Below, one piece after another: positions 1 through 43,046 of a stretch of DNA of 60,329 nucleotides. The position numbers were made by a program, and so were the translations under genes. The DNA is taken from assembly GCA_008632985.1 (NCBI GenBank), contig QPGO01000150.1:124001-184329 (forward strand), in the 5' to 3' direction. Position 1 is the first letter of the stretch, and the number at the start of each line of letters is the position of its first letter. The notes below the pieces were generated by a model. It ran no database searches. It saw nothing but the letters and a program-made list of their open reading frames with translations, and was not told the origin of the DNA. The stretch is from Psammoneis japonica. Its lineage: Eukaryota.

Positions 1-905
1 TTCCTGCATCTGCAGGCTGTCCGCAGCAACGCTGATCCCGCAGAAGCGCACACCAGATGACGCAACTCCCGACGCGAGACCTGTGATGGTCCACAGGAGA
101 TCCATGTGGCTGAGACCGGCGTGACTGGCCATCGCGCAAGTGACTCACCTTGTGTGAAGGGCATCCGCAGGATGCATGCAGTGCCAAGTGTGACTGATTC
201 CTCGAAAGGACTCAAACTCCGCATGTCTTGCTGTCGCACATGCACATGCTCCACACAAAATAAGCTCACAATTTTCACAACACCGAAACCTCTACGTCAT
301 GAGCACTTGTTCCCTGTTTCTGCATGGGTCACTGCGTTTTTGAGAAATGCCAATGACTGTCATCATCATCATGCTTCGATTGCGGTGCTGATGGTTCTCG
401 TTTTCGTGCGCGATCAGGTGTGACCATGAACAATTCTTGCATTCAAAAACAAGCACTGCGAAAAACCTTGTTCAAATGCAACGGCAATTTCAGGACAAAC
501 GTGGGGATGCCCCCCCACAATGGACCAAAAAGGGACAGGGCATGGACCGAAAAATTTTGGTTCATTTTTGTAACATCCATGCGTCGACCGCAGTGGCACG
601 ACTCATGAACTCCTCAAACCAACAGACCACAATGATGATGCGATGTTGTGTTTTGTGCAACCAATGCCACAAGCAGAGCTGATGTCAATGAACAAGTGCA
701 ACATTGGTGACAAGCTTCATCATGATGGGAAGCACAAACAACAAGAGCTGCAAAGAACTTGTGACACAAACACAGCTCACATTTGACTTGAAAGGTTGCA
801 CCAGTCTTCTCGTCACTCGTGTCACACCAACACATCTTGCCTTGTGCTCCTGCACATCATGAGCTGCTGGCTGCAATGAGTGCTGGGAGGAGTGTGTCTG
901 CTGCA

Positions 906-1237
906 GACGTGTTCCAGATGCAGGCGGGAATCCATGTGACATTGGGCCCACAGAATTCTGTGTGTGAGCTCTGCAGCAAAATTGTCAGGCAATGCATGTG
1001 TCAATGATCGCCAACAGAAAATGAGGCAATTTTGCGAAAGCACAAACTCGTCCATGATTGAAGCACATCATTTTTCACTTGTCCAGGTGCGCTCAGGGTT
1101 TTGCAAAACATTGAGTCTGGAACATTTTTTTGGAAGATCACATGCAGAAATGCACGTGCGAAACATGTGACGAGTGACAAAAAATGTTCATGTCACATGT
1201 CATTGCTGCGAGCTCCCACCCAGGGCTGGAATGCATT
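906..1237 (+). mobile_element. Decayed, internally deleted copy of the GACGCGTTCCAG-TIR MITE
   Basis: Aligns to 39750-40145 at both ends (gacgtgttccagatgcaggcggga ... tcccacccagggctggaatgcatt). Differences are mostly TA->TG/CA and CG->TG/CA, and no TA remains. Confidence 0.85.
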
Positions 1238-1337
1238 GATGTAGAACAGCTCCACCACAGCCTGCTGCTTGTGCTGCTTCATGCCAATGCTGCAATTGTG
1301 AGATGAAGAAAGTGTGCGGCAAAGTGCATGCGCTGTT

Positions 1338-1734
1338 GACGGGTTCCAGTCCTGGGTGGGACTCCGCGTGACATTGGGCCTGCAGAATTCTGCGTGCGAG
1401 CTCCGCAGCAAATTTGTGCTGCAATGAAAACACAAATGATCACCAACAGAAAAAGAGGCAATTTTATGAACGCATCTCCTCCTGCATGCTTGGAGTGCAT
1501 CATTTGTGGTTTGCCCGGGTGTGTTCTTCAGACATTGAAGAACATGCCCAGCGCATTTTCATTCTCATGAATGTTGAAAATGGAAAGCCTTTGGCTTCGC
1601 AAAACAGGGAGCATGAAACAATTTCGGAGAATGCAACACATGGAAATGTGTGTGTGTGACATGCGATGTGATCCAAAAAACTGTTGATGTCACAGTGCAG
1701 CAGTGCGAGGTCCCACCCAGAGCTGGAGCGCGTC
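1338..1734 (+). mobile_element. Decayed full-length MITE copy (397 bp) with 4-bp TSD TGTT
   Basis: Termini gacgggttccagtcctgggtggga / tcccacccagagctggagcgcgtc. TGTT lies at 1334-1337 and 1735-1738. Colinear with 39750-40145. Confidence 0.85.
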
Positions 1735-1849
1735 TGTTGCTCTTTTGGAGTTTTGCATGAAGCCAATCATGCTCATCAAGGGAAGAGCTGGTTTGGACAC
1801 AATTCAAACAGTGCTGGGTTTGACACAAATGATCACATCACGAATCCAT

Positions 1850-2300
1850 GGTGCAAGCTCCTCGGTCGCTCTGCATCATCCACCAATGGCTCTGACATCA
1901 TCGATGCTGTCAACCAAGCAGGCAGGACTCTTTCTCCTTCCTTTTACATTCAACAACCTTGGCGGCATCGGCAGTCATTTCCATGCATTTTTCTTTGGCA
2001 CCTCTGTCACAACATCTGCCTCCATCCTGCCCCTTCCTCCCAAACCGCCCTGGACAAGCCCATCCTCCTTTTCCAACCCCCCCAAGCATCTTTCCCCGCG
2101 CCTTTGCCAGCTCACTCTTGGCACCTTCTGACCTCCTCACCCACTCCAATGCGGCCTGGAAACAACTCTTTTGGCTCCTCCCATCATGCTTCAACCCCTC
2201 CACTCTGGGCCTCTCAAATTCTCAGTCTCATCAAGCTCGTCTCCTTTGCCACCCCACTGTCACCGATTCTTCCTCTCAACCTTCTGTCCGCACCCTCGGC
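1850..2300 (+). pseudogene. Possible decayed C-terminal fragment of a non-LTR retrotransposon ORF (CRE-like)
   Basis: Frame-broken peptides KLLGR..GSDIIDAVNQAG, LLPFTFNNLGGIGSHFHAFFFG and FGSSHHASTPPLWASQILSL resemble, from memory, the endonuclease tail of such elements. No RT motif is visible. Confidence 0.3.
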
Positions 2301-2623
2301 CCACCCTTTTCTCTCCATCCCCTCTCTGGCTAGAGCGCGCTCCGCGCGTCCCTCCTCCCGCCACATGTTCCCCCAGATCCACCTCCTCCATCACCATGCG
2401 GCAGAACCTCCAATTGCTGTGACAAGTGAAACAGCAACTGCTGCTCTCTCTCTGTTCTCTAGAAGTAGAGATGACTCTAGCTAGAGAGAGCAGAGATTTG
2501 AGTGGACAGCCAGCTGCCAGCCAGTCGCCATCGAACCCAATCCACACGATGGCAAAAAGAAAATCATCGACTCTTTACAATGTGACTGACAGCCACGAAA
2601 TGCAAAGTTAGTGTTGAACACAT

Positions 2624-4981
2624 TCACTGGTTGTCAACCGTGAAGATGCAGGCAGATCCGGAATCCTCGCCATTGACATGAGCACGGGCACCAACTCCAA
2701 GGACACTTCCGTCCGCCGACAAGGAAACGGACTCTCCAAATAAATCAAATTTAGACTCGCCATTCAAAGGATCACCCACGTGATTCCATTTGGTTGTGGT
2801 GGCATTGCATTGAAAGACTCTAACTCGGCCGAAATTGCAAACATCATGCAGTGGGCTTCCAACGGCCAGGACATCTCCATTCCCGCTCAAAGACACGGAA
2901 ATTCCAAACAAATCTGCCAGAGAAAACCCAGGCGATTCCGAAAGCAGAGTTTGGCCTCGTTGATTCCATGTCGATGTCGAACGGTTGTGGACATGAGCAA
3001 GAACCCTCGCGTCCTTTCCAGGCGCACCCACAGCCATGACCAAACCAGTGTCGTCAAGAGCTGGGAAGATCCAAAACCACCAAAATCAATTTGTCCTTTG
3101 GGTCGCCCAATGGATCCCATCTTGAAGAAGAAGCATTGTGTTCAAACACAGTGACTTGGCCAGAATGGGTGTTGACCCCACCTGCTCCAACACCAACAAT
3201 GCATCCTGAACGACTCAGAGAAACCGACTCACCAAAGCTGTCAGAAGCAGCTCCACCAATCAGTGTCTGTCCGAGTTGATTCCAGGATGATTTGCGGCGG
3301 CTGCATTGAAACAAGCGAACGGATCCCGAATTCTCACTGCCTCCCACGACAAGAATGTCTCCCACATCCGAGAGCGACAAAGAAGAAATGCAATCACCAT
3401 CAATTCCCATTCCAGGAATGTCGCTCCCAATCTGGACCCACCGATCATTTTTGGAGCTGCACTTGAACACTCGCACACAACTGACATTGCTTCCCAAAAA
3501 TGCCACCCCCACTTTTGCCCACAGCAAGAATCGTGCCATCACCATTCAACGATTGGACAATGGCAAAATCACCATCTCCGGCTTGACCAACCAAGACTTG
3601 ACCCATGGGCTTCCATTTCTGGGCAGCTTGTTTCCATTTAAACATGGAAACATGACCAGCTTTGGCTCCAGAAGAACCCCGTGTTCCTGCCGCCATGACA
3701 TGACCGTCGCGCGACAATGACACAGAATGTCCAAAATGCTCACACGCAGCTTCGCCATGCAACACTTGTCCGACGGGTTGCCACGGACCATCGGGCAAAA
3801 CATCTTGGGTTGCACCTGCGGAATGAGGAGCAGGCCCAATCATTTCGGAACGGACTTGATCTTCGTTCAGAGCCATGTCGTAGATTCGGACAGAGCCCAC
3901 AAAGCCCTCAAAGCAATTGTCAGCCTTGCTCTCTCGATCCGACTGCCAATGTTAAAAGGTGGCTCATTGACACAATGGGATCCACCAAGGAGGCTTTCCC
4001 TCTCCAGACAATTCTCCACCAGTGTAGATTCGCAATGCATTCCCATCACAGGTTGCAGCAATGTGCGCCCAAGTCTCGGGTGGGACCGGAACATTGCTCT
4101 CGATTGAAAAACTGTCGCGTTTCCCTTTGCATCCACCAAAACAGCCACCAGCCCGCACTTCACCGGTTTTCTGATGTGGGACAAGCCACGTGGCAAATGA
4201 TTTTTGAACAACAACCTGAGCAGTTTCGTCTGTAGAAAAGCATCTCACCCATGCCATCATGGTGTGTGATTTCATGTTGAGATGCTTTGATGCGGGGATG
4301 AGCACGTGGTTGTCGTTGCCATCAAGGCTGAGAGCATTCTTGGAAAGGCCAACCGGTTGCACAGAAGGTTCACCACCACCGCGTTTCCCATGCCATCCCT
4401 TCTTTCCTGCATCCTTGTAAAGTTCCTCTTCATCAAACGCACGCTCGAGCATGGGTCCAACACAAGGCATGAAACTAGGGAGACTGAATGATTTTTTCAA
4501 AAACACCACTCGATTCCTTCCGATGTGGAGGGGGGCATCCAGTGGTGAGTTGATGGTTGAGCACACTTCTCCTTTTCCCTTCAACATGAAATTGAAGCCA
4601 TCCACGTCGTGTTTCTCCACAACAAAATTGAAATCGGCTGAGTTCACCGAATCCACATCTTTTTCAATGAGTTTGAAATCACACTTGATCTCAATGGCAT
4701 CAACGGAATGGTCGTCGCCGCCAGCATTCATTGTTGCCAATGTGCCATTGACCAAGCAGCTTCTTGTCCGTCACCAGCAATGGCTCGCAGTTGCCACTTG
4801 TTCTTGGAGGAACACTCCTTCCATAGAAGACACCACGATCTGTTTTCTTCTTGCACGACGGAGCGCCACATGGTGGTGCTTCTTCATCCGCAATGGCAGC
4901 TTGCAGGGATCCAATCCACAGAAACAATGTGGAAAGGATGAGCAAGAGATGATGATGACGAGAGAAAGCGGGGGCTTTCAT
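2624..4981 (-). pseudogene. Secreted LamG/concanavalin-like plus FG-GAP-like beta-propeller repeat protein, frameshifted and hypermutated
   Basis: Signal-like N-terminus from ATG 4981. LamG motifs ALSLDGNDNHV, WAHIAATCDG and VRIYDMALNEDQV. Repeats of WxxxGxxLxGE...FGxSVSLSxxGxxxxVG. Spread over several frames, with usual Tyr positions reading Cys/His. Confidence 0.8.
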
Positions 4982-5368
4982 CACGTTGTTTTTTTTGTTG
5001 TTGTTGAAGTGATGGGTGAACAACAACAACAAATGAGAAACAATTTCGTTGCAACAATTGCAAACGTGCTTGCCCAGTGCTTGCCATCAAAATCGGATCC
5101 GCAAATGGCGGGGACTCGCGGATCATTGGATCCGCGAACCAAACAATGCACCCACGAATCGGATCATGACAACCACGGCAATTTCTTTATGGGGTGCAGG
5201 AAACGCAAAAAGGTTGGCTTTTTCTATCAAGTGCTGCAATGACATCGTCACTGCAGTGTCACAACGAAAAAATGGCTCGCAACTTGAAATTTAAACGGCG
5301 ACGGGGGGCGGGGCGGGCGGCGTCCGTTGTTTCCTGCGAGCCTACAGCACGTAAGGTACTACAAGTAC

Positions 5369-8300
5369 ATTATCCCGGGAATACAACCCATGTTGTATTC
5401 CGCAGTATTTCTCCGTTGAATTCTACACATTGTACTGACCGTCACCCCACTTCAGCGACCGTATCTTCCGTGTTCTTGTGGAGGAAGCACGGGAATTTTT
5501 CCCGTATCGAAACAACCGGGTTGTTGCATGGTACGTCGCGTTTTTGACAGATTTATGCAACAATACAACCGAGACCATGCCGTCTAAAAAGTGTTACAAG
5601 CCAACCTTGATAGCACTCACGTCATTTCTTGGCGGGGTGACTTGTCAATGTGAACAAGACTTCACCAACCAGAGGCCATTCAAACAACCCCCAACGATGT
5701 CGTGGTGGATGGGTCTAAAGGCGTATGGAACGCCCGAACCAGGCGACAACAGCTTGCCCATGCAAGCAAGGTCAAATTGGTTGGAACACTGGAGGAAGCC
5801 GATTTCCAGCTACATGTCAAACCGGTTGGTGCCGTGGAATGTTCTGTCAAATCAAGGCAACCCGACACGATCAACTGACGTAAAAAACCCCGTGCCATGT
5901 TTAACATTCATATTAATATTCTTGTTGCATGCAGTGCGTGTCTAGGGCTTCATTCTTCCTTGTTCAATCCACAACATCGCTGGAGCGCCCCTTCCAATTG
6001 AAGCATCATTTCTGTGCGCACGGCATCCAATAAATCCATCTGCACAGAATGGAATTTTGCACAACAAAACCAAGCCTCTTGGATTCCTTGTACAATTTCC
6101 ATTAATAATGAAACAAGAATCGCGAAAATCGGCCCAAGGGATGTTGAGATATCACCGCCGCCAACTCTTTACCATAAATTCCAGTGGCAGCTCAATTTTG
6201 ATTATTCAACGATAAGTTCCGAAGAGAAAGTCAGCACCATAAAAACTCAAGCCCTGTGGACACCTTATAGCACATACGTCAAAATAATGACAAGAAGTGA
6301 GAAACAACACCAAAGATGCAATAGTATATCACAAAAATCCGTCATGTTGATGCTGCATTCTCACAATTTCTGCACTGCACCTTCAGCGACAAATCCGCCT
6401 CGACGGATTGAACTCAACGCCAGCACCACTAGCCCATCACATTACTTGTATAAAAGCTCCGAATGCTGCGAAAAGAAACGGGAAAATACGGCAAAAATAG
6501 ATATAGATATCAGCGACGCAAGGGAGGCCATTGTCGCGATCGTTTTCTTTTTTGGTTGTCTTCGCAGCTGCGCGTCTTGGAGGGTGCTGCAGGTTGATGT
6601 AGCGGAAGTCGGTGTCTGTGCTTTCCTGGTGACCCTGTAGAAGAAGTACTAGACCCTACGCAGTTGTACCCAGGGTTGTATTCTTTCCGTCTACCTCCAC
6701 ATTATCCCGGGAATACAACCCATGTTGTATTCCGTAGTATTTCTCCGTTGAATTCTACACATTGTACTGACCGTTACCCCACTTCAGCGACCGTATCTTC
6801 CGTGTTCTTGTGGAGGAAGCACGGGAATTTTTCCCGCATCGAAACAACCGGGTTGTTGCATGGCACGTCGCGTTTTTGACAGATTTATGCAACAATGCAA
6901 CCGAGACCATGCCGTCTAAAAAGTGTTACAAGCCAACCTTGACAGCACTCACGTCATTTCTTGGCGGGGTGACTTGTCAATGTGAGCAAGACTTCACCAA
7001 CCAGAGGCCATTCAAACAACCCCCAACGATGTCGTGGTGGATGGGTCTAAAGGCGTGTGGAACGCCCGAACCAGGCGACAACAGCTTGCCCATGCAAGCA
7101 AGGTCAAATTGGTTGGAACACTGGAGGAAGCCGATTTCCAGCTGCGTGTCAAACCGGTTGGTGCCGTGGAATGTTCTGTCAAATCAAGGCAACCCGACAC
7201 GATCAAATGACGCAAAAAACCCCGTGCCATGTTTGACATTCACATTTAATGTTCTTGTTGCATGCAGTGCATGTCTGGGGCTTCATTCTTCCTTGTTCAA
7301 TCCACAACATCGCTGGAGCGCCCCTTCCAATTGAAGCATCATTTCTGTGCGCACGGCATCCAATGAATCCATCTGCACAGAATGGAATTTTGCACAACAA
7401 AACCAAGCCTCTTGGATTCCTTGTACAATTTCCATCAACAATGAAACAAGAATCACGAAAATCGGCCCAAGGGATGTTGAGATGTCACCGCCGCCAACTC
7501 TTTGCCACAAATTCCAGCGGCAGCTCAATTTTGATTGTTCAACGACAAGCTCCGAAGAGAAAGTCAGCACCATAAAAACCCAAGCCCTGTGGACACCTTG
7601 TGGCACATGCGTCAAAACAATGACAAGAAGTGAGAAACAACACCAAAGATGCAACAGTGTGTCACAAAAATCCGTCATGTTGATGCTGCATTCTCACAAT
7701 TTCTGCACTGCACCTTCAGCGACAAATCTGCCTCGACGGATTGAACTCAATGCCAGCACCACTAGCCCATCACATTGCTTGTATAAAAGCTCCGAATGCT
7801 GCGAAAAGAAACGGGAAAATGCGGCAAAAATAGATGCAGACATCAGCGACGCAAGGGAGGCCATTGTCGCGATCGTTTTCTTTTTTGGTTGTCTTCGCAG
7901 CTGCGCGTCTTGGAGGGTGCTGCAGGTTGATGTAGCGGAAGTCGGTGTCTGTGCTTTCCTGGTGACCCTGTGGAAGAAGTGCTAGACCCTACGCAGTTGC
8001 ACCCAGGGTTGTGTTCTTTCCGTCTACCTCCACATTATCCCGGGAATACAACCCATGTTGCACTCCGCAGTATTTCTCCGTTGAATTCTACACATTGTAC
8101 TGACCGTCACCCCACTTCAGCGACCGCATCTTCCGTGTTCTTGTGGAGGAAGCACGGGAATTTTTCCCGCATCGAAACAACCGGGTTGTTGCATGGTACG
8201 TCGCGTTTTTGACAGATTTATGCAACAATGCAACCGAGACCATGCCGTCTAAAAAGTGTTACAAGCCAACCTTGACAGCACTCACGTCATTTCTTGGCGG

Positions 8301-9366
8301 GGTGACTTGTCAATGTGAACAAGACTTCACCAACCAGAGGCCATTCAAACAACCCCCAACGATGTCGTGGTGGATGGGTCTAAAGGCGTATGGAACGCCC
8401 GAACCAGGCGACAACAGCTTGCCCATGCAAGCAAGGTCAAATTGGTTGGAACACTGGAGGAAGCCGATTTCCAGCTACATGTCAAACCGGTTGGTGCCGT
8501 GGAATGTTCTGTCAAATCAAGGCAACCCGACACGATCAACTGACGTAAAAAACCCCGTGCCATGTTTAACATTCATATTTAATATTCTTGTTGCATGCAG
8601 TGCGTGTCTAGGGCTTCATTCTTCCTTGTTCAATCCACAACATCGCTGGAGCGCCCCTTCCAATTGAAGCATCATTTCTGTGCGCACGGCATCCAATAAA
8701 TCCATCTGCACAGAATGGAATTTTGCACAACAAAACCAAGCCTCTTGGATTCCTTGTACAATTTCCATTAATGATGAAACAAGAATCGCGAAAATCGGCC
8801 CAAGGGATGTTGAGATATCACCGCCGCCAACTCTTTACCATAAATTCCAGTGGCAGCTCAATTTTGATTATTCAACGATAAGTTCCGAAGAGAAAGTCAG
8901 CACCATAAAAACCCAAGCCCTGTGGACACCTTATAGCACATACGTCAAAATAATGACAAGAAGTGAGAAACAACACCAAAGATGCAATAGTATATCACAA
9001 AAATCCGTCATGTTGATGCTGCATTCTCACAATTTCTGCACTGCACCTTCAGCGACAAATCCGCCTCGACGGATTGAACTCAACGCCAGCACCACTAGCC
9101 CATCACATTACTTGTATAAAAGCTCCGAATGCTGCGAAAAGAAACGGGAAAATACGGCAAAAATAGATATAGATATCAGCGACGCAAGGGAGGCCATTGT
9201 CGCGATCGTTTTCTTTTTTGGTTGTCTTCGCAGCTGCGCGTCTTGGAGGGTGCTGCAGGTTGATGTAGCGGAAGTCGGTGTCTGTGCTTTCCTGGTGACC
9301 CTGTAGAAGAAGTACTAGACCCTACGCAGTTGTACCCAGGGTTGTATTCTTTCCGTCTACCTCCAC
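5369..9366 (+). mobile_element. Head-to-tail trimer of a 1332/1333-bp non-autonomous element, probably Crypton-like (tyrosine-recombinase family remnant)
   Basis: Units 5369-6700, 6701-8033 and 8034-9366. Each unit has a 5' hairpin GGAATACAAC-ccat-GTTGTATTCC and a subterminal inverted repeat GAATACAACCC / GGGTTGTATTC. The array is flanked by AGTAC (5364-5368, 9367-9371) and ACA is common to all junctions. The peptide WMGLKAYG..RSNWLEHWRKPISSYMSNRLVPWNVLSNQGNPTRSTDV resembles the N-terminus of stramenopile Crypton recombinases. The repeat structure is certain; the family call is about 0.5. Confidence 0.75.
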
Positions 9367-9567
9367 AGTACAGCATCGCAGCGAGCTCCATGGAATCGAT
9401 AGCTCGTGAAGAGCTCGTACGTCGTACGTTTTCCCGCCAAAAACACGTGGAGGTCGCGTTTTTCTCCTCACATAATGCCTTATGGCGATGATGATTGACG
9501 CCGACACTACTTCTACTTGAACTGATACACGCTTCAAAATCAACCATCCCATATAATACTCCCGGCC

Positions 9568-10509: not shown

Positions 10510-11000
10510 AAGAAGAGTTGTAGTTTGATTGGGCGCAAGGATTTGCAATCTTTGTTCCTTTATCGGTATTACTCTCTCTCTCTAACGGGGTAAAACTCCA
10601 ACGTCGCCTTGCAATGCGAGAGGGCTTTGTTATGCGAACTTTGAACGTAACTAACAAGTGCTATTATAAAGTGTCTTAACAGGTAAGGGTACCATCAAAA
10701 ACAGCTTTCTGAATACCTGAAACTACAATTGCTCAAACATGCATATTCAATGGTGGGAAAATGGTTTGCCTGCCTGTTTGAACAACATCTCGCTCGAAGT
10801 GTTGGGACCAACGATATCCTGCAAGAGCTTCGCGGATGTGTATGTTTCCACGGGCTTCTTCACAATTTCAAACTTCTCTCTTGAAAAGGAGCGTAGAGTC
10901 TATCGGTGTACAGACGTTTTTCCGGGTCTTGAGTCGTGGATAATGTCCCTCAAAATCAATTGTGCGCTCACATTTCTTCTCATTTTTTGTTCGTTTCACC

Positions 11001-25395: not shown

Positions 25396-25444
25396 TGCCA
25401 AACAGACACAAAATGAATGAAGTGAGATGGCCTTTGTGATGCCC

Positions 25445-26690: not shown

Positions 26691-26882
26691 TAAGTGATTA
26701 TCATATAACTGAATGTTTGAATGAAAATTTCAAATGGCGTGAAATAATCGCACCATTGAAGTGAACTTGGTTCTTGCTCAGGAAGAAGCCTCTCACGAAG
26801 ATGATGTGAAGCCTATTCTCACTCTCCCTCGTCTCACAAAACCAACACAAACCAAGACATTTCTGCAGTTTGAATAACCAAA

Positions 26883-27974: not shown

Positions 27975-27982
27975 ATGGACAC

Positions 27983-31453: not shown

Positions 31454-34400
31454 TCATTCACTCACAGTGATTGCCCAACTCTTTCTTGCAAACATGATGA
31501 ATTTGATCCTTTCAGAATCAGCAAAGTCATTGCGGCACACGTGAGGCAGTGCGGTGCGAGCACCTTCCATTGCTTTCATTCTGATGTCTTCTTCGGAAAT
31601 TCCAAGATGAGCTTCTTCCTGATCGGAAGGCTTTCCCAACCACCGTTCTCGTTGTTCTTGGGTTGTAAGGTTGCTTGCAAAGAATGTGCTCGCGCGAGTC
31701 TTTGCAGCATGCTTGTCCATTGTGCACATGTCGAACACAGCCGACAATTTCTTCCATTGTTTGACAACCTGGAAGAAGGTTGCAAGAGTGAAGGGAATCA
31801 CTGTGTCCCCCCCTTCTTCGTTTTTTGAGAGCAAGGCCCAAAGATCAATCAGATTTTGGAAAAATTGAGTCGTCCCAAAACAACTGTCGTGCCACTCTCC
31901 ATCTGGCATCCAGCAGCAGCCCAACATGATTTGGTCGAACCCATGATTGTCGAAATCAACAAGTTTCTCAAACTGCTGCTTGACTCTCTTGACGAAATCT
32001 CTTGCTTTCACACTGCAATTTAAGTGCAGATCAGGATGTCCGTCTTGGAGAGAAACTGTTGGAACAACATTTGTGATTGTTTTGTTGGATTCCACAAATG
32101 CCATTGCACTGGCCTCATCTTGCCTGTGTTGGTCGGATGATGCTGAGGCCACCCCCTTCTCAGAGCATGGTTCTTGAGAAGATGGTTGCCTTGCATTGAG
32201 CGGATGGGTCATCCCCAGCCACAGCACAATTTTGTGTTTCCCCGTTGGCTTCGTCACTTGCGAGACAATCTCCTGAGTCGCTGTGGTCCTCTTCACCCTC
32301 GGAGCAATGTGCAACTTGGTTGTGCTCATCGTCAATGGGCTCTTCGCTTTTGTCCTCTTCACCCATGCAAGCAGTTGGAAGTTCGCTTGTTTTCTCGTCA
32401 ATTGACTCCTCCTTGCAATCGTCACTTTTGTTCATTGCGAATGACAACAAATCACCGGCGGCCTTCTTCCTGTTAGAACGAGAAAATCAATGTGACAATG
32501 TCAGTGCAATCAGACAAAAAACAAATGTGATTGCCATGAAAAAGCAACCTCTCTTTGCCATTCCAGTTCGGCTTGAACTTCATCAGTCAACATGAGTGGG
32601 ACTGGCTCCCGTTCACACCTTCCAAACCGCTTGATCATTGATTGCCCATCAGAGAACAAGAGCAACAGATGCTGTCGACAACAAAAGACATCGCAGATTC
32701 CCATCTTTTCACGAGCTGCAATCAGGTCACACAGCAAAGACTCTGGGCCATTCTTTCCACAGTCTTCCAAATCAAAATCACCCTCTGTCCATTCCAAGAG
32801 TAAATCGTGCTCCTCCACCGGGACCTTCATTTCCTCCATTTGCTTCGCCACTCCCAACTTGGCCACCGGATGGACAAGATTACGAAGGTCAGGGTGAGGA
32901 TGGATCCCTGCCACACAGCATCAATGTCTGCATGGAGTTCATGCATCTGAACTCTCCACAATCAGCACCTGTGTGATCCCATGTTTGGACCACGGTTTCA
33001 AACATGTCCTCGATCGCCTTGTGGTCAAACGCTGGCTTGCCAACATTGTCATTGATCCAGTTGATGACAACAACCAGTCCGCCAACAAGCAAATCCATCA
33101 AACCGTCAAGTTTCATCCCGCACTCTGCCACATGAACCTCCTTGAAATCGAGTCCCGGGCTCTGCATGCGTTGGTCATTGCGATCCCCCGCAATGCTGCC
33201 GAATGGCCTTGCAGCTTCTCCGAAGCATTGAAGGACACGATCGCCAGCCGCGCTCCTCCACCGGGACCTTCATTTCCTCCATTTGCTTCGCCGCTCCCAA
33301 CTTGGCTGCCGGACAGACAAGATTGCGAACATCAGGGTGAGGATGGATCCCTGTGCCACACAGCATCAATGTCTGCACAGAGTTCATGCATCTGAACTCT
33401 CCACAATCAGCACCTGCATGATCCCATGTTTGGGCCACGGCTTCAAACACATCCTCGATCGCCTTGTGGTCAAACGCTGGCTTGCCAACATTGTCATTGA
33501 TCCAGTCGATGATGACAACCAGTCCGCCAACAAGCAAGTCCATCAAACCATTGAGTTTCGTCCCGCACTCTGCCACATGAACCTCCTCGAAATCAAGTCC
33601 CGGGCTCTGCATGCGTCGGTTGTTGCGATCCCCTGCAATGCTGCCGAACAGCCTTGTGGCTTCTCTGAAGCAATGAAGGACACAATCACCAGACACGAAA
33701 GGACGCTTCACAGCATCTGTGTTGCACAACAAGCAGCAAAAATGGGAGAATCCGGTTTGACACCCAGCCACAACGGCGCAATGAAAGCAATCACACACAC
33801 CAACCTCGTCGAGGTTGTCGATGATTGCCGAACAACTGCACGAGAAATTAAAGTCCTTCACGATGGCAAACGGAAGACGTTTCCTTGGCATGACAACAAC
33901 GGGATGCTCAGCTGTGTCAGACGGAAGATTTGGTTTGCCAATTTCCTCTTCCACCCACACAGAGTGAGGGTCAAGGAAAAAATCTTTGATGTTTCTGTGG
34001 GTTGGCTTGCCCAACGGAGGACGACAAGGGCCACGGCATCTCATCATTTCTGCAGCACATGACAGATCAAGTTTTGCGAAATGACCATGCACACGCGATC
34101 GGAACTCGGCACACCCATGCACCGAACTGACACAGTTTCCAGCATTGCCTTTGGATGCAGTGACAACCTTCAACAACCAAGAGTGACCAACAGCGTCTCG
34201 CAGTGATGAGCAAAGAGCACCAGTCTTGGTGCACCCATCCATGTCAAAATCCTCTTTGTCAATGTGCAGCTCGGTTTTCGAATTGACGGATTTTTTGCCG
34301 GATGACGAGACGCACTTCACTTGAATTTCCACGCCTTCCCTTCTGATGTGCTTGGCTCCAACCATCTTGTGGAGCTCAGCCGCGAAAAGACTGTCACGGC

Positions 34401-36560
34401 ACGGGTCATGGAAGGAGCGCATTTCTTTCAAAGCAACAAGATTGATTTGGTCCTCGCAGAGTTGCGTGGCGTCCAAGATTGAGGCTGTCATCACCTGCAC
34501 ATCCTTTGGAAGCTTCTCCCACTTGTCCCTGCCAAAGACAGAACCAGGCATGTGAGCAGGTCCCACTTCAGCTAACTTGCCATCTGTGACTTCGTAATTC
34601 TGGCCACAACAACCAAAACAGATCTGACAGCACAGCTTGCACTCTGGTCCATCCCTTTTTTTGTTCGGCTTGCCATGTTCCAACACTGCACGGAGTGTCG
34701 ACGACACACTGAATCGCAATCCAAAAAAGCATTTCTGACACATCTTGTCCGTGTGTCGCAAACAAGTGACCACGCCAGAAAAATGAGAGGTTGACTGGGT
34801 CGGGCAAGTGATCGCAACCATCGATTCTTGCGTTGGATCATTGGGAGCTGCGCCATTTTCAAATCCATGCACAAACTTGCGGAGGTGATTCACCAAGCAG
34901 AAATTGGAGATGCTGTGGAATGACTGGTGCTTGACACAGTTCCCCTTGAAGGAACTGGAAATGGGGGTTTCCTCAAAGACGACAAGGTGAGAATGTTGTG
35001 ACTTCACCTCGCCCGGAATCGCAAATGGAGATGGTTCAGGAAACACTTTCACAAGCTCTTCTTTTGTGAAATTGTCTGGCAGAGGAGGAGGTGACTGACA
35101 AGTTGCACCGAGGGTCAGCCACTTTGTTCGGGAACATTCAAATTGTTCCTCGAGAGTCGGCACATCTTGAAGAATCAGCGATTTGTTCTGAGAAACATCA
35201 GAAGGTTCGCCATCTTTGGTGTTTTTGAGACCATGGCTTGAGGAGCAAAGGGAGGCAGCTGAAGAGGTGGCAAGAAGAACAGAAGAATTGGAGACAAGAA
35301 GAGGAGGACAAACAATCAATCAAACAATGTGGTGGATTCACACCATTTGGATTTTTTTGTTTCCGAGCATTTTTCGTAACGGATGGAACTGCATTGCCGA
35401 TTTCTTTCTTCTTGTGCTGAGTGGCAAAGTCACGAAGCCTGGCTTTCCACATGGCCTCAAAATGATCCCTTGTGGCCTTGCTTTTGCCGGAATCATCAGC
35501 GGCAGAAACCACACGATCAATTTTCACACATCTTAAAAGAGTCTCATTGACATGTGTTGCGTGCATTTGTTCTTGCTCAACATCGAGCATCGCTGGTCAC
35601 GTGGGCTTTTCCCAAGAATTTTTGTGTTGGCGGAACAACGACTTTACCAATTCAGGGAAGGACACAGGGCATTCGTCTTTGGTTGTCTCACAGTGACCAA
35701 GAGCCAGGAAATTCTCCAAAAAGTTGATGCAAGTCAATGTCTCGTCACATTCGCCGAACAGGGAGTGCAGCCAACAATCGCAATCACCATTCCTTTCAGG
35801 TGTGCACGGCAGAATCTTGTCACGAAGAATCAAAAAACCAATGTGAAGGTGTTGTGCACAACGCAAAACCTTCCCTTCAAAACTTCTCAGCTCAGTGTGC
35901 TTGACAAGTGGCTCTCCCTTTGGGTTGCACAATCCGGGATCATGGAGAAGCTTGCACAACATGGTGATCTTTGCCATCATGTTGGTTGCAATGTCTGTTG
36001 ATTTTGCCTTGTTGCCGATGACTTTCATGTCCTCCACTTTGGGAGCACGGCGATGCTCCAACGCATGAGGATGTTTGGCGCCTTGACTGGAACAACTCCA
36101 TCTTTTTGCGGAAAGAAAGTGCAGCAAGCTCTTGTGCCCAAGTTCCTTTGCAACAACATGGTTCACAGCCATTGGCTCTGCAAAAAAATGAGGTCTGCCC
36201 TTCGACTTTTGCCACACATGGGCAAGCGCGATCCAATTTGGAGAGGGATCACAAGTGGAATCGCGGTGAAACTGAACCTTGGATTTCACCATCTTGATTG
36301 TCGCTTTGACACGGCTCCGCTCGTTGCCATCGATCACTCCAAAACCGTTGGCAAAGAGAGATTCAAACACGGCCTCCTCGAGGTGGGAATCGTTGTTGTC
36401 TTGCGACAGAGAGGTGACCGACAGGTCACGCGGCGCCATGGTTGCTGTTCCAACACCAAAAAATCTGGTTTCTGTGGAAATGCACCAGAGTGGTGTGTGG
36501 GAGAAGTTGCACACGCGCCTGGCACGATTTGGAGTTTCAAACACAAAAACCCACCAGACG
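31454..36560 (-). pseudogene. Large decayed ORF(s) of unknown function inside the TIR element
   Basis: Long same-strand frames (323, 134, 714, 130 and 361 aa) with protein-like composition but almost no Tyr. Confidence 0.5.
32806..33692. repeat. Tandem duplication of a ~443-bp unit
   Basis: Units of about 32806-33247 and 33249-33692 both begin cg.gctcctccaccgggaccttcatttcctccatttgcttcgcc and end gaaggacac.atc.ccag. Confidence 0.9.
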
Positions 36561-39500
36561 CGTGCGCAACTTCTCCCAGGGAAATCCTGCGTGAGATTGC
36601 ACCGGGAAAGGGCAACACAGAGTGCAGAATTGATGGAAGAAAACATTGTGTGGAACCGCATCAGGAGAAAGGGTGCATGCACTGGAAAACAACATGGATT
36701 TCTGCATGTGCGTTAAGGTGCGTAAAAAACACGTGGGGGCCTTCAAGTGACGCACGCGAACAATCACAAAGAAACATTCGGAAATGGAGACAGCACAGAG
36801 AGAAGTCAGAAACATGGATCCAAAACAAAGTGACACACAACAGAAAAAAAAAACAACAACAAGAGATGAAGGCGACGGCGACGGGATCGATGAAAAAGAA
36901 GGATTTGGATGGAAAGACACCGGAGACGGTGAAAACAGGCGGCACCAAGATGAGGAAGGAAGAGAAAAATGGGACGGGCAAAATGAAGAAAGAGAAAAAG
37001 AAGCTGACAACATGACGTCAAGAGGGGAGCAGCAATGCGATTCAGCACTTCGAGGGACCTCTTCCTCTCGATGATGTTCACCCAAAATCGCAAGAAATGC
37101 AGTGTGGCTTTTTTGGAACGGCGACGAGGAAACATCCAACGCGGCAGCGGCACATTTGAAATTCTTGCAAGAGAGTGGACAAGACACACGGAATGAAGAG
37201 GATGATGCGGACGACTGGGCAAATTGGAGTGCAGTTGTTGATCAAACAATCAGCGCACACTTTGCATGATGAAAATTTCATTGCACGCAATTGCAGTGTT
37301 TGGCTTGTCGTCAAAGATCGTCAATTGTTGTGAAAAAGGCAGAGCACAAAAATTAAAAAACATCCGTGTTCAAACATGAAGAACAGCAGGAGATTGACAA
37401 TTGGCCAAATGACAAAAACCGTCATGTGCAGACAAGTGGATTTTAAAACACAGCAACACATTTTTGTCATGTGTGCAGACATTGCGATGTCGTGCACTCT
37501 GATGCACTGGTTGAGCCAGCATGCAACTTTTGCACTTGCTTGCTGCAGGCAGCCTGGCTGCTGTCTTCCCCAGAGGATCAGCTGGAGAGCAGCTTGCCAG
37601 CACAGATGGCAACTGGTTGACACCCCAGCAATGGCGACAACAAGCAAGTCCTCAAGCTTTGGCCTTGGAGAAGAAACTCTTCCCAAGCAGCACATTTGTG
37701 GCTTGTCAGCAGGAGGACAACAGCTTTGAGCAGAAGAGCAAGCAGCAAACTTGTGTCACCACACAGCAAACAAGATTTCATCATGGAAATGCACAGAATG
37801 AGTGCACCACTCTGTGGCCAGAAGAGGGAGGTCTGGAATGTGATGATCACAGGACAAGAAGAAAAATGTGGCTCATGTTCCAAGCTCATGTTGCAGTGCT
37901 TGTTCTCATTCCCTGTCACACTTCATGGAACAACCACACTCTGATGCCTCAGTCAATGCTCTGAGAAAGGCCTTTTCAACTGCAAAGGAAAAACTGGAAT
38001 GTGTGCACTGAGTTTGCCAAACAAATGGAATGCCCCATGCTCTTGGAGCACATGGCATCTGTCTGCCTGTTCTCTGGCATCTGTCTGTCAGCTCAAGAGA
38101 GCAGAGTTGCTCTGCCCCCTGGCACTGAGCCATTTTTTCTTCTGCTGAACACATCTTTTTTTTCTGGCAGCCCTGCCACTTGACAATGGCGGGCACATGA
38201 TGCACGCCAAAGTGGCAGCCACACTCACTCAACAAGCACGACTCAGTTGCAAGTTTGACAATGGCGCTGCTTGCGCTGCTGGCATCAAAAAGTGCAGTTT
38301 GGTTTGACGCAGTGCCTCACTCTGCTGCAGCATCATGGCCATGCTTGGAGCTTGTGAAGTGAAAAGGATGTGTCACAAAATGACAATGGAAAGAAAATGT
38401 GAGAGACTCAGAAGTTTTGAGAGAACAACAAATCCCTCAGCAGCCAGTGTCCTCCAACTTGCCACAAAGCACAGGTGGATGAGCACCCCCTCTACCTCCT
38501 CTTGATGCTGGCTTTCCTCATTGTTGCTGTTTGTTTGATGTGCTTGAAATTGTGCATGATTTTTGCAGGAGCAACAAGTGCCAAGTGCAGCAGATGACAA
38601 GAGAAAAAAGATGCCAATGCAAAGACTCTGCTGCTCCACCATCAATTTGCGCACATGCCACCAACTCAACAAAAATTCATGGAATTTTGCAGTGCTTTTC
38701 TTCATGCTTTCAAGCAAAAAGTCTTTGTTTCCTCTCAACGTCAACACATCTGAATGGTGCAAAAGAGGCTCAGCACATGCGTGCTGATGACCTGGCTCTG
38801 TCTCCAATCTTGTGTGATGGGTTCAGCCAAAGCGCACCCACTGTCTTTGTTGTTGAGCCAAACATCAAATGCGCGCATGCAGACATGAGATCACAGATTG
38901 ACTTTCCATGGCAAAAACAAAAACACAAAAGTGGTGCACAAAGAAGAAGACAAGAACCAAGAGAAGCAGAGACAAGGCACGTGAGACTTGGCAGTGTGCC
39001 TCTTTGCTGTTGCAGCCATGGGTGATGAGCAATCCATCATGTGAGAGGCTAATTTTCTGGACAGTTTGGCACATTCAACTCCTTCAAATTTGATCATTTC
39101 AAAAATTGAAAGGTGAGTGCAGACAAAAAACCAAAAGTTTTGTGTGTGATTTGGGAGAAAACCAATTGTGAACAAGTCCATTGTGCTGAATTGCAAAAAC
39201 AGGCCAGTGATGGGAATCAAGCCTGTGCATGTCACCTGGAGCTGGGGCAGCATCAAAGTGCTGGAAGGGCCAGTTGGTTGCAACAACCAGCAGCTTCATT
39301 AAAAATGCAGACAATTTTCTTTCCCTTGGCATGGCTCTGCTGTGCAGCAGCAGCTTCCACAATTCCGTTGCTGATGCACATGTGGTGGAATGCCAGAAGC
39401 GTCCAAGTGCAGTCTGGCAAACTCATCCATTGTTCATCATGGAGCTTAAACAGAATGGTGGTTGCATGGAGTGTGCTTTTCATGTTCCTTGAGAATCTCC

Positions 39501-39749
39501 TCACAATCACGGAGTGTGGATGTGCACTCCATGAAAAGTGGCCTCCACGAAATGTGCAAAAATGGCCTTGTTTCTTGCAGAATGGCTCAGAGGAATGTGA
39601 GAAAAAAGGCTTGTTCTGCACACTTCCATGAAGTCTCATTTGCTGCACACACCTTTGCACTTGTTTGTTGTGGCATGGCCAGCATGACCACTTGGGTGCT
39701 GAGGCCACCAAGGCCTGCATTGAAGTCTGCCAAGAAAATTTCCAGAGTG

Positions 39750-40145
39750 GACGCGTTCCAGACGTAGGTGGGAATCCGTGTGACATTGGGCCCGTAGAAT
39801 TCTACGTGCGAGCTCCGTAGTAAAATTATACGGTAATTAGAATGTCAATGTTCGCCAACAGAAAATGAGGCAATTTTGCGAACGCACAAACTCGCACATG
39901 ATTGAAGTACATCGATTTTTACTTAGCCAGTTACATTCTTCAGACATTGAAGAATGTAACTGGCGCATTATTGTTTCTATAAATGCGTCATGTAAAACGT
40001 CTGGGGCTTCGCAAAACAGCAAGTCTGGACAATTTTTTTTAAATATCACACGTAGAAATGTACGTGCGAAACATACGACGGATGATAAAAATTATTTGTG
40101 TCACACGTCAGTACTACGAGCTCCCACCTAGGGCTGGAACGCGTC
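39750..40145 (+). mobile_element. Young 396-bp MITE with ~24-bp TIRs and 4-bp TSD AGTG
   Basis: GACGCGTTCCAGACGTAGGTGGGA ... TCCCACCTAGGGCTGGAACGCGTC, with AGTG at 39746-39749 and 40146-40149. Non-coding and retains about 28 TA. Confidence 0.92.
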
Positions 40146-43046
40146 AGTGGGCAAGCCATGAGGCCAGCACTTTCTTGCATCTCTGCTTTTGCAAGATGGC
40201 AGCCTGGAGCTCCTGAACAAAGGATGAGCAGCAGCAGCAAATTTGAGGTGCACAAGAAAGCCTTCATTCTGGACAGACAGTGCACATCCATCCAGCCCCC
40301 AGATGACTGGGCAGCACTGGCACTCTGGCTTCTGACAGCTTTCAGCATGATGAGGCAGCTCTGTTGTCTGGAGAGCAGCTTGAACAAATTTGGCAAATGT
40401 GCAGCACCAAACCCACAGAGATGACACTCAGACAGAGACGCACACTCAGCAATTGCAAAATGCAGAGTGAAGCACCAATTTCTTGAGGCTCAAACATTTC
40501 TGGCGCACGCTGCTGCACCCAAGCTTTCTCCCACGGCAAGCTCCACATGTGTGGCTGTTGTGCATGGCTGTTGCACAGCAACACCACACTGCCTCAGATG
40601 TGTGTGGTGCCATCCTTTTGGCTTTTGTGGCAGACGCCCTTCATGCCACAGCTGTGCATGCTTTCAAGTGCCAGGCGTGTGCCTTCTTGGCCAAGCAGAG
40701 AGCTGTGTGCTTGAAACTTTCCTTCTCTTTGGCATTGAGCCATCTCTTATTGATGTTTGGTTGAGTCCCACCCACTGAAATTTTTGCCCAAGGAGTGTGC
40801 TGCGTGTGGCGCAGGTGCCGAGCATCGTGGCGTGCCCTGCTTTTGGAGCAGCTGCGCCGAAGCTTGCTTGGCTGCCATTGTTGTTGACAGCATGGGCACA
40901 GAGAGGCCAGTGGCTGCCATCCCTCCCTTGAAAGATGAGGATGCTTCACTCAAAGATCTGAGAAGCAAAGGCAGGCACCTTTGACATGGCTGGTTGCCAC
41001 ATCCCAACCAGCGGTTAAAACTTGCTTTTCTTCGACCATGTGCTGCGGCATGTGGGGCGGTTGCGTCACCACAGCGACACGCATGGGCACAACATTATTC
41101 GCGCGTCGCAGTTGCTGTGAACACCTACCACAACACTTTTTTTTGTGAGCGACAATGAAACGCTTGCCGCTTGCGTCGCCTTCGTCGATTCTTTATACAA
41201 GGTTAGACACTCATGAGATCGTCTCCATTCGTTCATGTGATGCATGTGCCTTGGCTCTGTCTCGATAATCACCGTGAGACTTTTTAAAAACTGGGTCAAT
41301 GCCTTGACGCGTGCGCTGTTGCTGCGTACTGTTTTGATTTTTTGTTTTGCATGTGCTCCCGTCGATCCTCTCACAGTTTCTATTTGTCGCAATGCTGTAC
41401 CGTTTCGTAGGTGGTATGGAACAATGCCCATGCAAGCACCATTCGGTTTTTCACTTCTTGTTCTCGAGGTTGGCGTCGCAATGTATAAAAGCCATCAAGG
41501 ATACCACCACAACCTCATGCGTTTCACGGGCACTAAAATATACGACAAAGACGTGCATCTATCGTTCAGGACACGCAATCGGAGTCAAGATACTCAGAGT
41601 CGCAATTAAGCAAGTCACTCTTGTCGTAACTTGCATGATCGTCATTCGTAAAGACAGCATACGATCCTTTTCGCCGTCGATGCGTCACCAAAGGGCGGGT
41701 ATTGACGACTCGCAGACGGCGGCTGTGGTATGTACACGGAAAGAATTGCAACATGATGTGTAAGGTGGCAGTGCTGGGAAGGTACATTATTGTTTCCGCC
41801 GTTTTGTGGGCCAGGTATTGCTTATCCATATTCTTTTGCTCATTCGGATGGATACCGGCTCCGTTTGGTTACATTATCAAACTCGATGGTATGGTGGTGA
41901 AGGAAATGAGATATCCAACATGTTATCTGAGCGTATCATTACTTTGGCGGGGGCTTGCGACTGTTGGTTTCTGGGAAAGAAATGAATTGTGGAATTGTTC
42001 GATGCTGCCGATACTACTGTACCTACTACGACGTGGACGAGTATATCGACCTAAAGAGAGTGAGAACAGTAGTTCATTGATTGTTGGTGGCTCGCCATGT
42101 CCTTTTTCATATGGCAACATTATGGGTTGGGGGAGCGAATATACTCAACCAATGTCTGGGCGTAGCGCCTTTGTCGGGTACAGGCTTGCCGTAGTGCGTT
42201 TATTCTGGAAACAGAATTGGTATGGAAGAGAGAAGGAATGAAGCTAGCCCAACTGACGGCTTTACTGGTCTGTCGAGAGATTTCCTTGCAGAAGAAGAGT
42301 GCAACTACTGGTATATGCAAGGGTTCTCGCTGTATGAATACGCATACGCTAAAAAGAATGCTGCAACGAGGAATAACACCGGTGACGACGAGCAGCGTGG
42401 AGCCTATTCAGCATGTATTGATCGCTCCGTCTTGTGTAAGTACTCGTGGATGACCTGTGTATTGAAGGAACCTCACTATTTGTACATTGTCGCACTCACT
42501 AGTATTTTTATATTGAATGATTATAAGGATACTGCAGTCGCATCGGCTATAATGCGTTTCGTCCTCAAACCCTACTATATCGCAAGAGCAATTCTGTCGC
42601 CCGGCCAAAGACTTGCTGCGAAGAATACGACTGCCTCTTGCCCATACCCGCGAGAATGACAATTTGCGCCACAACAATAAGCCGTGGTGGTACTTGATGT
42701 GTATGCTTGTGGACTATGCAGCTTTCGATGCCGGCATATTATCGGTGATAATGAGGAGGTCTGGATAATTCGTCAATGTCGATTATCAACCAAAGTGTCG
42801 ATTGCTCCTTGCGACTGTTGCGAAGGTGATGTCATTTTTGTGAATCCCCGTACGCTACGACATCCGTCGTACGTCAATAATGTGGGGCATCTTCCGTCTG
42901 TAGCTTGGCAGCCTGCATCTGCAACTAGATATGTTGGGTTTCAACAATTGTACAAGGAGGATTCAATTGAATGTAATGCCTTTCTAGTTGTTATTCCTTT
43001 ATGAAAAATAGACAAATCATTTACATGCATTACACTACGAAAGTGT

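Follow-up and report, generated by a model that had tools for sequence, protein, structure and literature searches.

The window analysed here, a stretch of 60,329 nucleotides of contig QPGO01000150.1 from Psammoneis japonica (assembly GCA_008632985.1, positions 124,001 to 184,329 of the forward strand), contains multi-kb domains in which the dinucleotide TA is nearly absent. We consider it likely, with a probability of about 0.8, that these domains record a real, in-place, DNA-level hypermutation of TpA to TpG or CpA in a probable diatom, of the same kind as that described for Bigelowiella natans (Mettrop et al. 2026, bioRxiv 10.64898/2026.01.13.699255, dated 2026-04-14). The process was confined to kb-scale domains and acted after duplication or insertion, at the resident locus. 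New here are the lineage, the near-saturation of the change, the targeting of duplicated host genes and of one tandem copy, a link to CpG decay, a TAY rule for the sequence context, the independence of the two strands, and a later insertion that was spared.

Domains depleted in TA

In 1-kb sliding windows, the observed/expected ratio (o/e) of TA was 0.00-0.13 in the depleted domains (A to D, Table 1) and 0.4-0.9 in the flanking genes, and the same windows of the domains had TG/CA o/e of 1.5-1.9 and CpG o/e of 0.1-0.8. The borders of the segments were drawn by a two-state hidden Markov model (HMM) fed with TA positions alone. The original prediction, made from the letters by a model, had described multi-kb domains almost without TA beside genes of ordinary TA content, with about 30 TA in 11 kb of domain D. 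Both analyses confirmed this; the HMM segments agreed with its coordinates almost to the single base, and the main segment of domain D held exactly that number (Table 1). The HMM also called an 835-nt depleted patch (6928-7762) that was absent from the original list, and a 365-nt island with ordinary TA (39765-40129) between the two parts of domain D.

The five large depleted segments, 26,485 nt in sum, contained 90 TA, compared with 1,037 expected from the o/e of the normal segments (the binomial P underflowed to 0). Normal segments showed TA o/e of 0.54-0.64 and CpG o/e of 0.99-1.07; TA o/e was 0.59 in the segment 26303-28701, which holds the intact DUF2235 gene. The corresponding values in depleted segments were 0.04-0.07 for TA and 0.32-0.67 for CpG, together with 1.64-1.84 for TG and 1.51-1.90 for CA. 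The deficits of TA (947) and CpG (773) added up to 1,720, close to the 1,629 given by the excesses of TG (798) and CA (831), indicating that two sources, TA and CG, were drained into two shared products. The domain edges lay in intergenic DNA adjoining intact genes. The right edge of domain B was graded, fading over approximately 750 nt, to about position 20150, inside a dead gene duplicate, as would a spreading chromatin state.

Two further stretches had unusual composition. TA o/e was 0.27 at 43001-44000, a region not called depleted by the HMM, which could reflect ordinary codon usage or mild exposure to the same process. The opposite composition was found at 44001-45500 (TA o/e about 1.2, TG/CA o/e 0.72-0.83, AT o/e 0.57), where a tandem repeat with a period of 386 nt (44515-45198) is rich in TAG/CTA words.

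Three public sequencing runs from one sample (X1, X2 and X3) were compared with positions 13001-32500. The original prediction had proposed confirming the bases with other reads, and the X1 contigs, from a library of unrecorded type and possibly from the same sample as the assembly, reproduced the depleted letters. Five X1 contigs spanned 13001-15039, 15331-17241 and 17835-19520 in domain B with 34 other letters in approximately 5.7 kb, and one more spanned 25310-29142; the k-mer depth was 43-61 in unique sequence. If X1 shares that sample it provides no independent biology, but it is a second reading of the letters, and its divergence of 0.3-1% from the window shows that it is no mere copy. 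Among the 35 listed differences in domain B, 21 were CpG versus TG/CA, 4 were TA versus TG/CA and 10 were of other types. Three of the four TA-type differences restored a TA and one removed one, in a domain with about 23 TA sites present in either sequence; these four are the sole hint here of a raised de novo rate. If the real DNA had ordinary TA density, domain B would show approximately 260 differences from X1, instead of the 34 seen.

A base-calling or assembly artefact, in which the platform would call G or C for a modified TpA base although the genome truly reads TA, had been raised by the prediction itself. Assemblies built from nanopore reads alone are known to carry systematic errors at modified motifs. 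As the library type of X1 is unrecorded, its contigs exclude a caller artefact only on condition that the data are polymerase-based short reads or HiFi, to which their depth and contiguity point. Such an artefact is nevertheless very improbable. The X1 contigs repeated the depleted letters at a depth of 43-61 over 13001-19520 and 25310-29142, and their differences from the window were mostly of CpG type (21/35) and seldom of TA type (4/35). The outcomes were strictly TG or CA, with CG never in excess; they followed the flanking bases and differed among paralogous copies. CpG decay and indels went along with the TA changes, and an unmutated miniature inverted-repeat transposable element (MITE)-like element sits within a saturated domain.

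The contigs of run X2 matched only 20907-22871, 26835-28456 and, at 91% likeness, 24278-24785. One of them joined 21887 to 21976 with the ends CT..AC, which is GT..AG on the - strand, thus delimiting an 88-nt intron (21888-21975) in the PKD-channel-like gene. As this contig was spliced, X2 behaves like RNA despite its label 'DNA?', and its missing cover over the depleted domains is no evidence of silence. No contig of run X3 was placed on 13001-32500.

Direction, place and context of the change

Three arguments, drawn from codons, from an outgroup and from discordance between tandem units, concurred that the direction of the change is TA to TG/CA. Four duplicate pairs (A to D; references in Table 1) were compared. 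TA of the normal copy read TG/CA in the depleted copy at 23/33 sites in pair A, 29/40 in B, 33/72 in C and 13/18 in D, the lower value of pair C belonging to a duplicate that straddles a domain edge. The reverse (TG/CA to TA) was found at 0/2, 0/1, 6/29 and 1/1 sites, respectively, and in pairs A and B one site of each set was still TA in the depleted copy.

The codons of the intact open reading frames (ORFs) in these pairs were asymmetric. Their 52 Tyr codons (two ORFs overlap by approximately 150 nt, giving a small double count) were Cys in 22 cases, His in 15, Tyr in 6 and other in 9 in the depleted copies, whereas 0/22 Cys and 0/22 His codons of the intact copies aligned to Tyr. In the DUF2235 pair, SLYYSGVG of the intact gene was ALCHSGVG in the dead fragment of domain C; when the DUF2235 protein was searched against the PDB, the alignment was limited to residues 122-236 and left the YYSGVG motif outside. 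The homologue search for outgroups found no relatives within the length limits for ORFs 11435-12304 and 21024-21977. Polarity was therefore taken from the LamG ORF of domain A, the Tyr codon asymmetry and the TG-versus-CA discordance. The LamG ORF was aligned with 589 domain stretches from the best 150 of 2,459 relatives at E up to 0.001. Columns 155, 199 and 241, which are 37%, 29% and 49% Tyr, read H, H and C here (HIAATCDG), and over 161 aligned columns the expected numbers were 6.3 Y, 0.4 C and 3.7 H, while 2 Y, 5 C and 6 H were observed. The claim of the prediction that changes of Tyr to Cys or His fix the direction was thus borne out by HIAATCDG, by SLYYSGVG versus ALCHSGVG and by 37 of the 52 Tyr codons, and the outgroup polarisation that it had named as a possible refutation gave Tyr-rich LamG columns that read H or C in domain A.

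The tandem units gave the third argument. The two 445-nt units in domain D showed 38 differences, 36 of which were transitions, and 20 of the 38 made up 10 aligned dinucleotides at which one unit had TG where its partner had CA. Since it takes two steps to pass from TG to CA, yet one to reach either of them from TA or CG, this discordance implies a TA or CG ancestor. Only 11 dinucleotides were CG versus TG/CA; CpG ancestors therefore explain about one discordant site, and the remainder were once TA. These findings demonstrated that the units were converted as DNA, at their resident site, once the duplication had occurred.

The reverse polarity, in which the copies poor in TA would be the ancestral or foreign ones and a CpA-to-TpA process like repeat-induced point mutation (RIP) would have hit the 'normal' copies, is scarcely conceivable, even though the pairwise comparisons and the tandem triplet described below are unpolarised by themselves. 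The TA-bearing copies are intact, with recognisable domains, and are matched by X2 contigs, and it is at their Tyr codons (52 in the tally above) that the TA-poor copies have Cys or His. The outgroup LamG columns are Tyr, the discordance between sister units requires a TA or CG ancestor, and a TA o/e of 0.04 is far under the 0.54-0.64 of every normal segment.

A recent action of the process was seen in the 1.34-kb tandem triplet. Its two outer copies share 99.25% identity, whereas the middle copy had 25 TA compared with 58 and 52 in its sisters. Its 43 private substitutions comprised 32 changes of TA to TG/CA, 2 in reverse, 4 of CpG to TG/CA, 4 other A-to-G or T-to-C changes and 1 other; 36 of the 43 were A to G or T to C, 32 of those at TA. 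They clustered at approximately 6860-8010, a patch of about 1.1 kb. The original statement that duplicate pairs differ mainly by TA versus TG/CA held for this young patch (32/43) and failed for the old pairs, as TA-type changes accounted for 23 of the 165 single differences in pair A, where CpG decay added 31. In the old pairs they are the most site-specific class of change and not the majority. In the outer copies of the triplet, TA versus TG/CA was found at 3/4 sites private to the first copy and at 3/5 private to the third, a hint of low-level hits outside the main patch.

The MITE-like element in domain D (39750-40145), with terminal inverted repeat arms at 39750-39773 and 40122-40145 that are 92% complementary, keeps 28 TA and 27 CpG, and its segment 39765-40129 had TA o/e of 0.83 and CpG o/e of 1.49. 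Two mutated copies of the family in domain A had 0 and 1 TA, and at the 17 TA sites converted in both of them the outcomes agreed at 12 and differed at 5. The presence of an unmutated element in a saturated domain means that the process is not permanently active on everything in a domain, and it appears to be either episodic or applied per insertion event. The element is possibly flanked by AGTG on both sides.

The context of the change was determined in the four pairs with the strands folded. The fraction of A read as G in the depleted copy was 0.25-0.43 for TAN, 0.09-0.18 for AAN, 0.12-0.15 for CAN and 0.09-0.14 for GAN, so that the trinucleotide spectrum suggested as a check in the prediction indeed gave an A-to-G enrichment in the TA context only. 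Each TA offers two targets, and these values therefore correspond to at least 70% conversion per site; the conversion of TA sites was near-total, about 95%. The 90 surviving TA included 20 TTAA, 11 GTAA, 11 TTAC, 10 CTAG, 10 TTAG and 8 CTAA, with 1 GTAC and no ATAT, ATAC or GTAT. An additive per-strand model fitted the survivors with doses of 3.1 for TAT, 1.9 for TAC, 0.8 for TAG and 0.4 for TAA, and the preferred context is 5'-TAY. The struck strand followed the flanks, the TG:CA ratio being 32:16 at YTAY and 17:28 at RTAR (Fisher P 0.007). The order of TG and CA outcomes was evaluated along seven pairs, and the runs tests were non-significant in 7/7. With no deficit of runs, a processive single-strand tract of the APOBEC type was not present; the two strands were hit independently, site by site.

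CpG also decayed in the domains. CpG of the normal copies read TG/CA in the depleted copies at 31/55 sites in pair A, 21/49 in B, 34/94 in C and 6/13 in D, and about half of the CpG in the depleted domains had decayed to TpG/CpA. The loss of TA per site exceeded that of CpG approximately 15-fold in the young patch and 4-fold in the old domains.

Known systems and alternative explanations

The closest known system is the TpA-to-TpG/CpA hypermutation of B. natans, taken here as the main text of the preprint describes it (10.64898/2026.01.13.699255). In 15 mutation-accumulation lines, 231 of 302 nuclear mutations fell in a nucleocytoplasmic large DNA virus (NCLDV) region of 186 kb and a virophage region of 25 kb, at approximately 6e-7 per site per generation or 1,000 times the background. 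Of the 231, all but one turned A into G or T into C, and each of these 230 lay on TpA; hypermutation occurred in 11/15 lines only. The authors also reported 124 clusters with Rho_TpA of at most 0.43 together with a Rho_CpA+TpG of at least 1.52, enriched for transposon domains, and a single-copy region that was hit too. They favoured an adenine deaminase, proposing an ADAT2 homologue and citing the DNA activity of amphioxus ADAT2 (10.64898/2026.01.13.699255). The domains described here exceed these cluster thresholds by a wide margin (Rho_TpA 0.05, Rho_CpA+TpG approximately 1.65). The view of the original prediction that the process was undescribed has thus been overtaken by this preprint, whose main text does not contain the words diatom or Phaeodactylum. 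A literature search on the signature of TpA depletion or on diatoms, with most subscription journals outside its reach, found nothing closer.

In both cases nearly all changes are A to G or T to C and lie at TpA only, with TpG or CpA resulting according to the strand. They also share the restriction to delimited regions beside normally mutating DNA, an apparently intermittent activity, and long-term TpA depletion with CpA+TpG enrichment in clusters. They differ in lineage, B. natans being a chlorarachniophyte (rhizarian) and the present organism a probable diatom (stramenopile), and in extent, as depletion is near saturation here (TA o/e 0.04-0.07) compared with a Rho of 0.45 in the NCLDV region. 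The targets here were a high-copy repeat, a MITE family, host-gene duplicates and one copy of a tandem triplet, in contrast to the viral regions of B. natans. Strong CpG decay coincided with the domains, unlike in the description of B. natans. The rule for the 3' flank (TAT > TAC > TAG > TAA) and the test of strand independence are given here, while the words 'trinucleotide' and 'flanking' are absent from the main text of the preprint. The rate in B. natans was measured in living lines; here the process was read from sequence alone.

Among other dinucleotide-specific processes, fungal RIP makes TpA from CpA, acts on C via a C5-methyltransferase-like protein, is triggered by homology and hits both copies. 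Like the process here, RIP in Neurospora and other fungi brings about dinucleotide-specific transitions that irreversibly inactivate repeats or duplicates in delimited tracts, and its ties to cytosine methylation and heterochromatin and its action as a genome defence are a further likeness. The direction is opposite, however, as RIP creates TpA whereas the process here destroys it and acts on A:T. Furthermore, RIP hits both duplicates, whereas here one was hit and its twin 2-4 kb away was untouched, the normal copies having TA o/e of 0.54-0.59 and their twins 0.05-0.07. RIP was therefore rejected on direction (LamG, Tyr codons, discordance) and on the sparing of the twin copy. Deamination of 5-methylcytosine (5mC) turns CpG into TpG/CpA, the usual trace of 5mC; it gives the same end products and is present in the same domains, but it cannot remove TpA, and the CpG decay was 4-15 times slower per site than the TA process. 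The direction and the TA specificity supported the original view that the process is distinct from both. GC-biased gene conversion was rejected as lacking dinucleotide specificity, and selection against TA was rejected because it cannot act on broken, Tyr-less copies.

As the most likely mechanism, a polynucleotide adenine deaminase would be recruited to silenced, presumably CpG-methylated chromatin, where the resulting hypoxanthine would pair with C and yield A-to-G changes on one or the other strand. An ADAT2/TadA-like enzyme is a candidate agent because the natural substrate of TadA and ADAT2-ADAT3 is always an A after U (U33-A34 in the anticodon loop; U-A-C-G for bacterial TadA), although another deaminase-fold enzyme could also be responsible. 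These enzymes and the adenine base editors derived from them convert A to I (read as G) after U or T, as seen here, but act naturally on a tRNA loop, whereas the process here acted on kb-scale chromatin domains; the DNA activity of TadA editors was obtained by laboratory evolution. Transposons, insertions and gene copies that are redundant would thereby be disabled irreversibly, through Tyr to Cys/His replacements and the loss of TAA/TAG stops. The activity would be episodic, in keeping with the unmutated MITE in a saturated domain and with the hit on one of three tandem copies. The original idea of an A:T-to-G:C mutator acting on silenced repeat domains stood with respect to the mutator, its context and its restriction to domains. 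Its word 'repeat' was only partly right, because one duplicate copy was hit while its twin was untouched, and because a single-copy region was hit in B. natans.

Several points weigh against this interpretation. The silenced, CpG-methylated state of the domains is read from the CpG decay only. No deaminase was found in Pfam scans of the window ORFs, and no viral genes were found in the domains by Pfam, with viral and metagenome contig scans giving no confirmed match. Host-gene duplicates as targets fit a 'defence against foreign DNA' less well. The triplet with the young patch is unpolarised when taken alone, its sisters being 99.25% identical. Run X1 carries the label 'DNA?', has no recorded library type, and may share its sample with the assembly. 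Finally, A to G on one strand is T to C on the other in sequence, and a thymine-directed chemistry is equally compatible.

In that chemistry, a TET/JBP-type dioxygenase would oxidise the T of TpA to 5-hydroxymethyl- or 5-formyl-uracil in silenced chromatin, and mispairing of this base with G, or its faulty repair, would give T to C. Dinoflagellate 5-hydroxymethyluracil is enriched at TpA and 5-formyluracil directs the misincorporation of G; the counts for the duplicate pairs, the sequence contexts, the strands and the mass balance fit this route equally, and the TAY flank rule simply reads RTA on the T strand. We regard it as unlikely, as a conversion of about 95% by a weakly mutagenic base needs very long exposure, yet the process was 4-15 times faster than CpG decay. 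The authors of the B. natans preprint likewise favour adenine deamination. Error-prone patch repair with the WA-to-WG errors of a Pol-eta-like polymerase, triggered by T:G mismatches from 5mC deamination, would explain why CpG decay coincides with the domains. This route has little credibility: in the B. natans hypermutable regions G/C-to-A/T changes amounted to 1/211, according to the preprint, and the young patch had 32 TA changes and 4 CpG changes, so that the supposed trigger was rarer than its effect. During somatic hypermutation the A-to-G errors of Pol eta fall on WA motifs, whereas AA was not raised here, the value for AAN (0.09-0.18) being like those of CAN and GAN and below the 0.25-0.43 of TAN.

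A route through RNA, in which ADAR-like A-to-I hyperediting alters the transcripts of elements and reverse-transcribed, already mutated copies are then inserted, can practically be dismissed, although an A-to-G spectrum with a 5' U preference resembles that of ADAR, as also remarked in the B. natans preprint. The mutated DNA includes duplicates of neighbouring genes, a patch in one tandem copy and a graded edge inside a duplicate. The tandem units diverged through independent conversions after duplication, and both strands were hit at interleaved sites. A 5' A was not preferred and TAG was a poor substrate, unlike the preferences of ADAR, which are 5' U similar to A, then C, then G, with a 3' G favoured. 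To our knowledge, ADARs are known only from animals.

Returning to adenine deamination, it is a tentative suggestion that diatoms and chlorarachniophytes share an old system, a chromatin-guided, TAY-specific deaminase of adenine in double-stranded DNA, which as a mirror image of RIP would erase TpA in silenced, methylated domains of transposons, viral inserts and redundant host genes. If true, such a system would have a share in determining which duplicated genes persist in these algae. If the present observations are confirmed genome-wide, TpA-erasing hypermutation would be known from two lineages, this one being the first among the stramenopiles, and what has been a peculiarity of one species would become a possibly widespread defence in the algae dominating the primary production of the sea. 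The mechanism is constrained by the strand-independent hits, the TAY rule, the CpG decay, the graded edges, the spared MITE and the action on one copy. An enzyme able to change A:T into G:C within resident chromosomal DNA, at a specificity of two to three bases, would be of interest for base editing. Such domains also mislead gene finders, as stops are nearly absent from them and spurious ORFs of great length arise, and they distort the dating of transposable elements (TEs) and the composition-based detection of foreign DNA.

Contents of the domains and neighbouring genes

Table 1. Features of the window, with positions counted from its first letter.
Feature	Position	Strand	Remarks
Domain A, TpA-depleted	1-5187	.	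24 TA, o/e 0.074, CpG o/e 0.64
Three mutated partial copies of the MITE-like element, domain A	906-1086, 1096-1234, 1335-1737		
Broken FG-GAP/LamG gene in domain A	2627-4770	-	Pfam FG-GAP_2 and Laminin_G_3
LamG (Laminin_G_3) ORF	3967-4770	-	Wholly in domain A; used for outgroup polarity
1.34-kb tandem triplet	5367-6704, 6699-8037, 8032-9370		Middle copy 6699-8037 (+) carries the young hypermutated patch, densest at 6928-7762
Unmutated reference gene (orphan)	10962-12896	+	Ordinary TA; reference of pairs A and B
Domain B, TpA-depleted	13068-19394	.	20 TA, o/e 0.050, CpG o/e 0.41
Mutated duplicate of gene 10962-12896	15135-16988		In domain B
Mutated duplicate of the PKD-channel-like gene stretch 21075-22837	18789-20525		Partly in domain B, spans its right edge
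Unmutated PKD-channel-like gene	21024-22827	-	Pfam PKD_channel at the cut-off; reference of pair C
Domain C, TpA-depleted	23361-26302	.	14 TA, o/e 0.074
Dead fragment of the neighbouring DUF2235/Tle1-like gene	25702-26068		In domain C; pair D
Intact DUF2235 (T6SS_Tle1-like_cat) gene	26874-27971	+	Pfam E 7.4e-36; between two depleted domains; reference of pair D
Domain D, main part, TpA-depleted	28702-39764	.	30 TA in 11,063 nt, o/e 0.040
Contents of domain D	approximately 28.6-32.5 kb; 32809-33692		High-copy repeat; 445-nt tandem duplication; also long open frames without a family
Unmutated MITE-like element in domain D	39750-40145	.	Approximately 396 nt, 24-nt terminal inverted repeats
Domain D, distal part beyond the MITE	40130-41095	.	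2 TA, o/e 0.039, CpG o/e 0.32

The Pfam scan covered 122 of the 167 stop-to-stop ORFs of at least 110 aa in the window, including all 89 that begin in depleted domains, and nine ORFs were rescanned at E up to 5. In the depleted domains the only matches were FG-GAP/LamG (domain A) and, weakly, a single Chitin_bind_1 (E 0.0022, domain D). Their ORFs of at least 110 aa yielded no domain of a reverse transcriptase, integrase or transposase, and the relaxed rescan of the nine ORFs brought nothing meaningful. Domains B and C contained mutated duplicates of adjoining intact genes (the orphan, PKD-channel-like and DUF2235 genes). The summed depth of X1 contigs over 28.6-32.5 kb of domain D was 4,000-24,000, indicating a very high copy number. 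The prediction had stated that the domains hold only TE remnants and dead genes. The high-copy stretch and the MITE-like family agree with this, while the statement was too strong with no TE protein domains among the matches, and the term 'TE remnants' draws on copy number and the MITE family, without protein homology.

The longest open frame of domain D (33178-35319, - strand) has 714 codons and is rich in Cys and His. With TGA left as almost the sole stop, a run of this length would still stay open with a chance of approximately 4e-9 per start, and the frame is too long for chance even in TA-free DNA. Pfam, the homologue search, and the viral and metagenome contig scans gave no family or relative for the frames of domain D, and for the 714-aa ORF the Atlas gave leads to transposase-like clusters at 0.84-0.85 only, below the level that counts.

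The tRNA and Rfam scans of the window gave no match. The genes of the window are eukaryotic, with pentatricopeptide repeat (PPR) proteins, a class-C G-protein-coupled receptor (GPCR) with an ANF receptor domain, UFD1 and repeats of the Helicase-associated (HA) domain, and are nearly intron-free, the single intron seen being the 88-nt one (GT..AG) described above. In the Atlas, the cluster nearest to the UFD1 ORF (score 0.96) occurs most often in Bacillariophyta, so that this one protein fits the earlier suggestion of a probable diatom, and on this single look-up the source is taken as a diatom or one of its close relatives.

A gene with three HA domains (PF03457, E 4e-52) in 201-nt tandem units lies on the - strand at 43137-44177, overlapping the TA-poor stretch 43001-44000 noted above. 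The stretches 54036-55177 and 55636-55866 are GC-rich (58-60%), with arrays of 42-, 75-, 117- and 132-nt tandem units and a 39-nt array, which lie in long open frames on both strands without a Pfam match. Two paralogous class-C GPCR-like genes (ANF_receptor and 7tm_3) were found at 50406-53279 and 56816-59381; they are 71% identical over 2.3 kb, and the latter is split over three frames.

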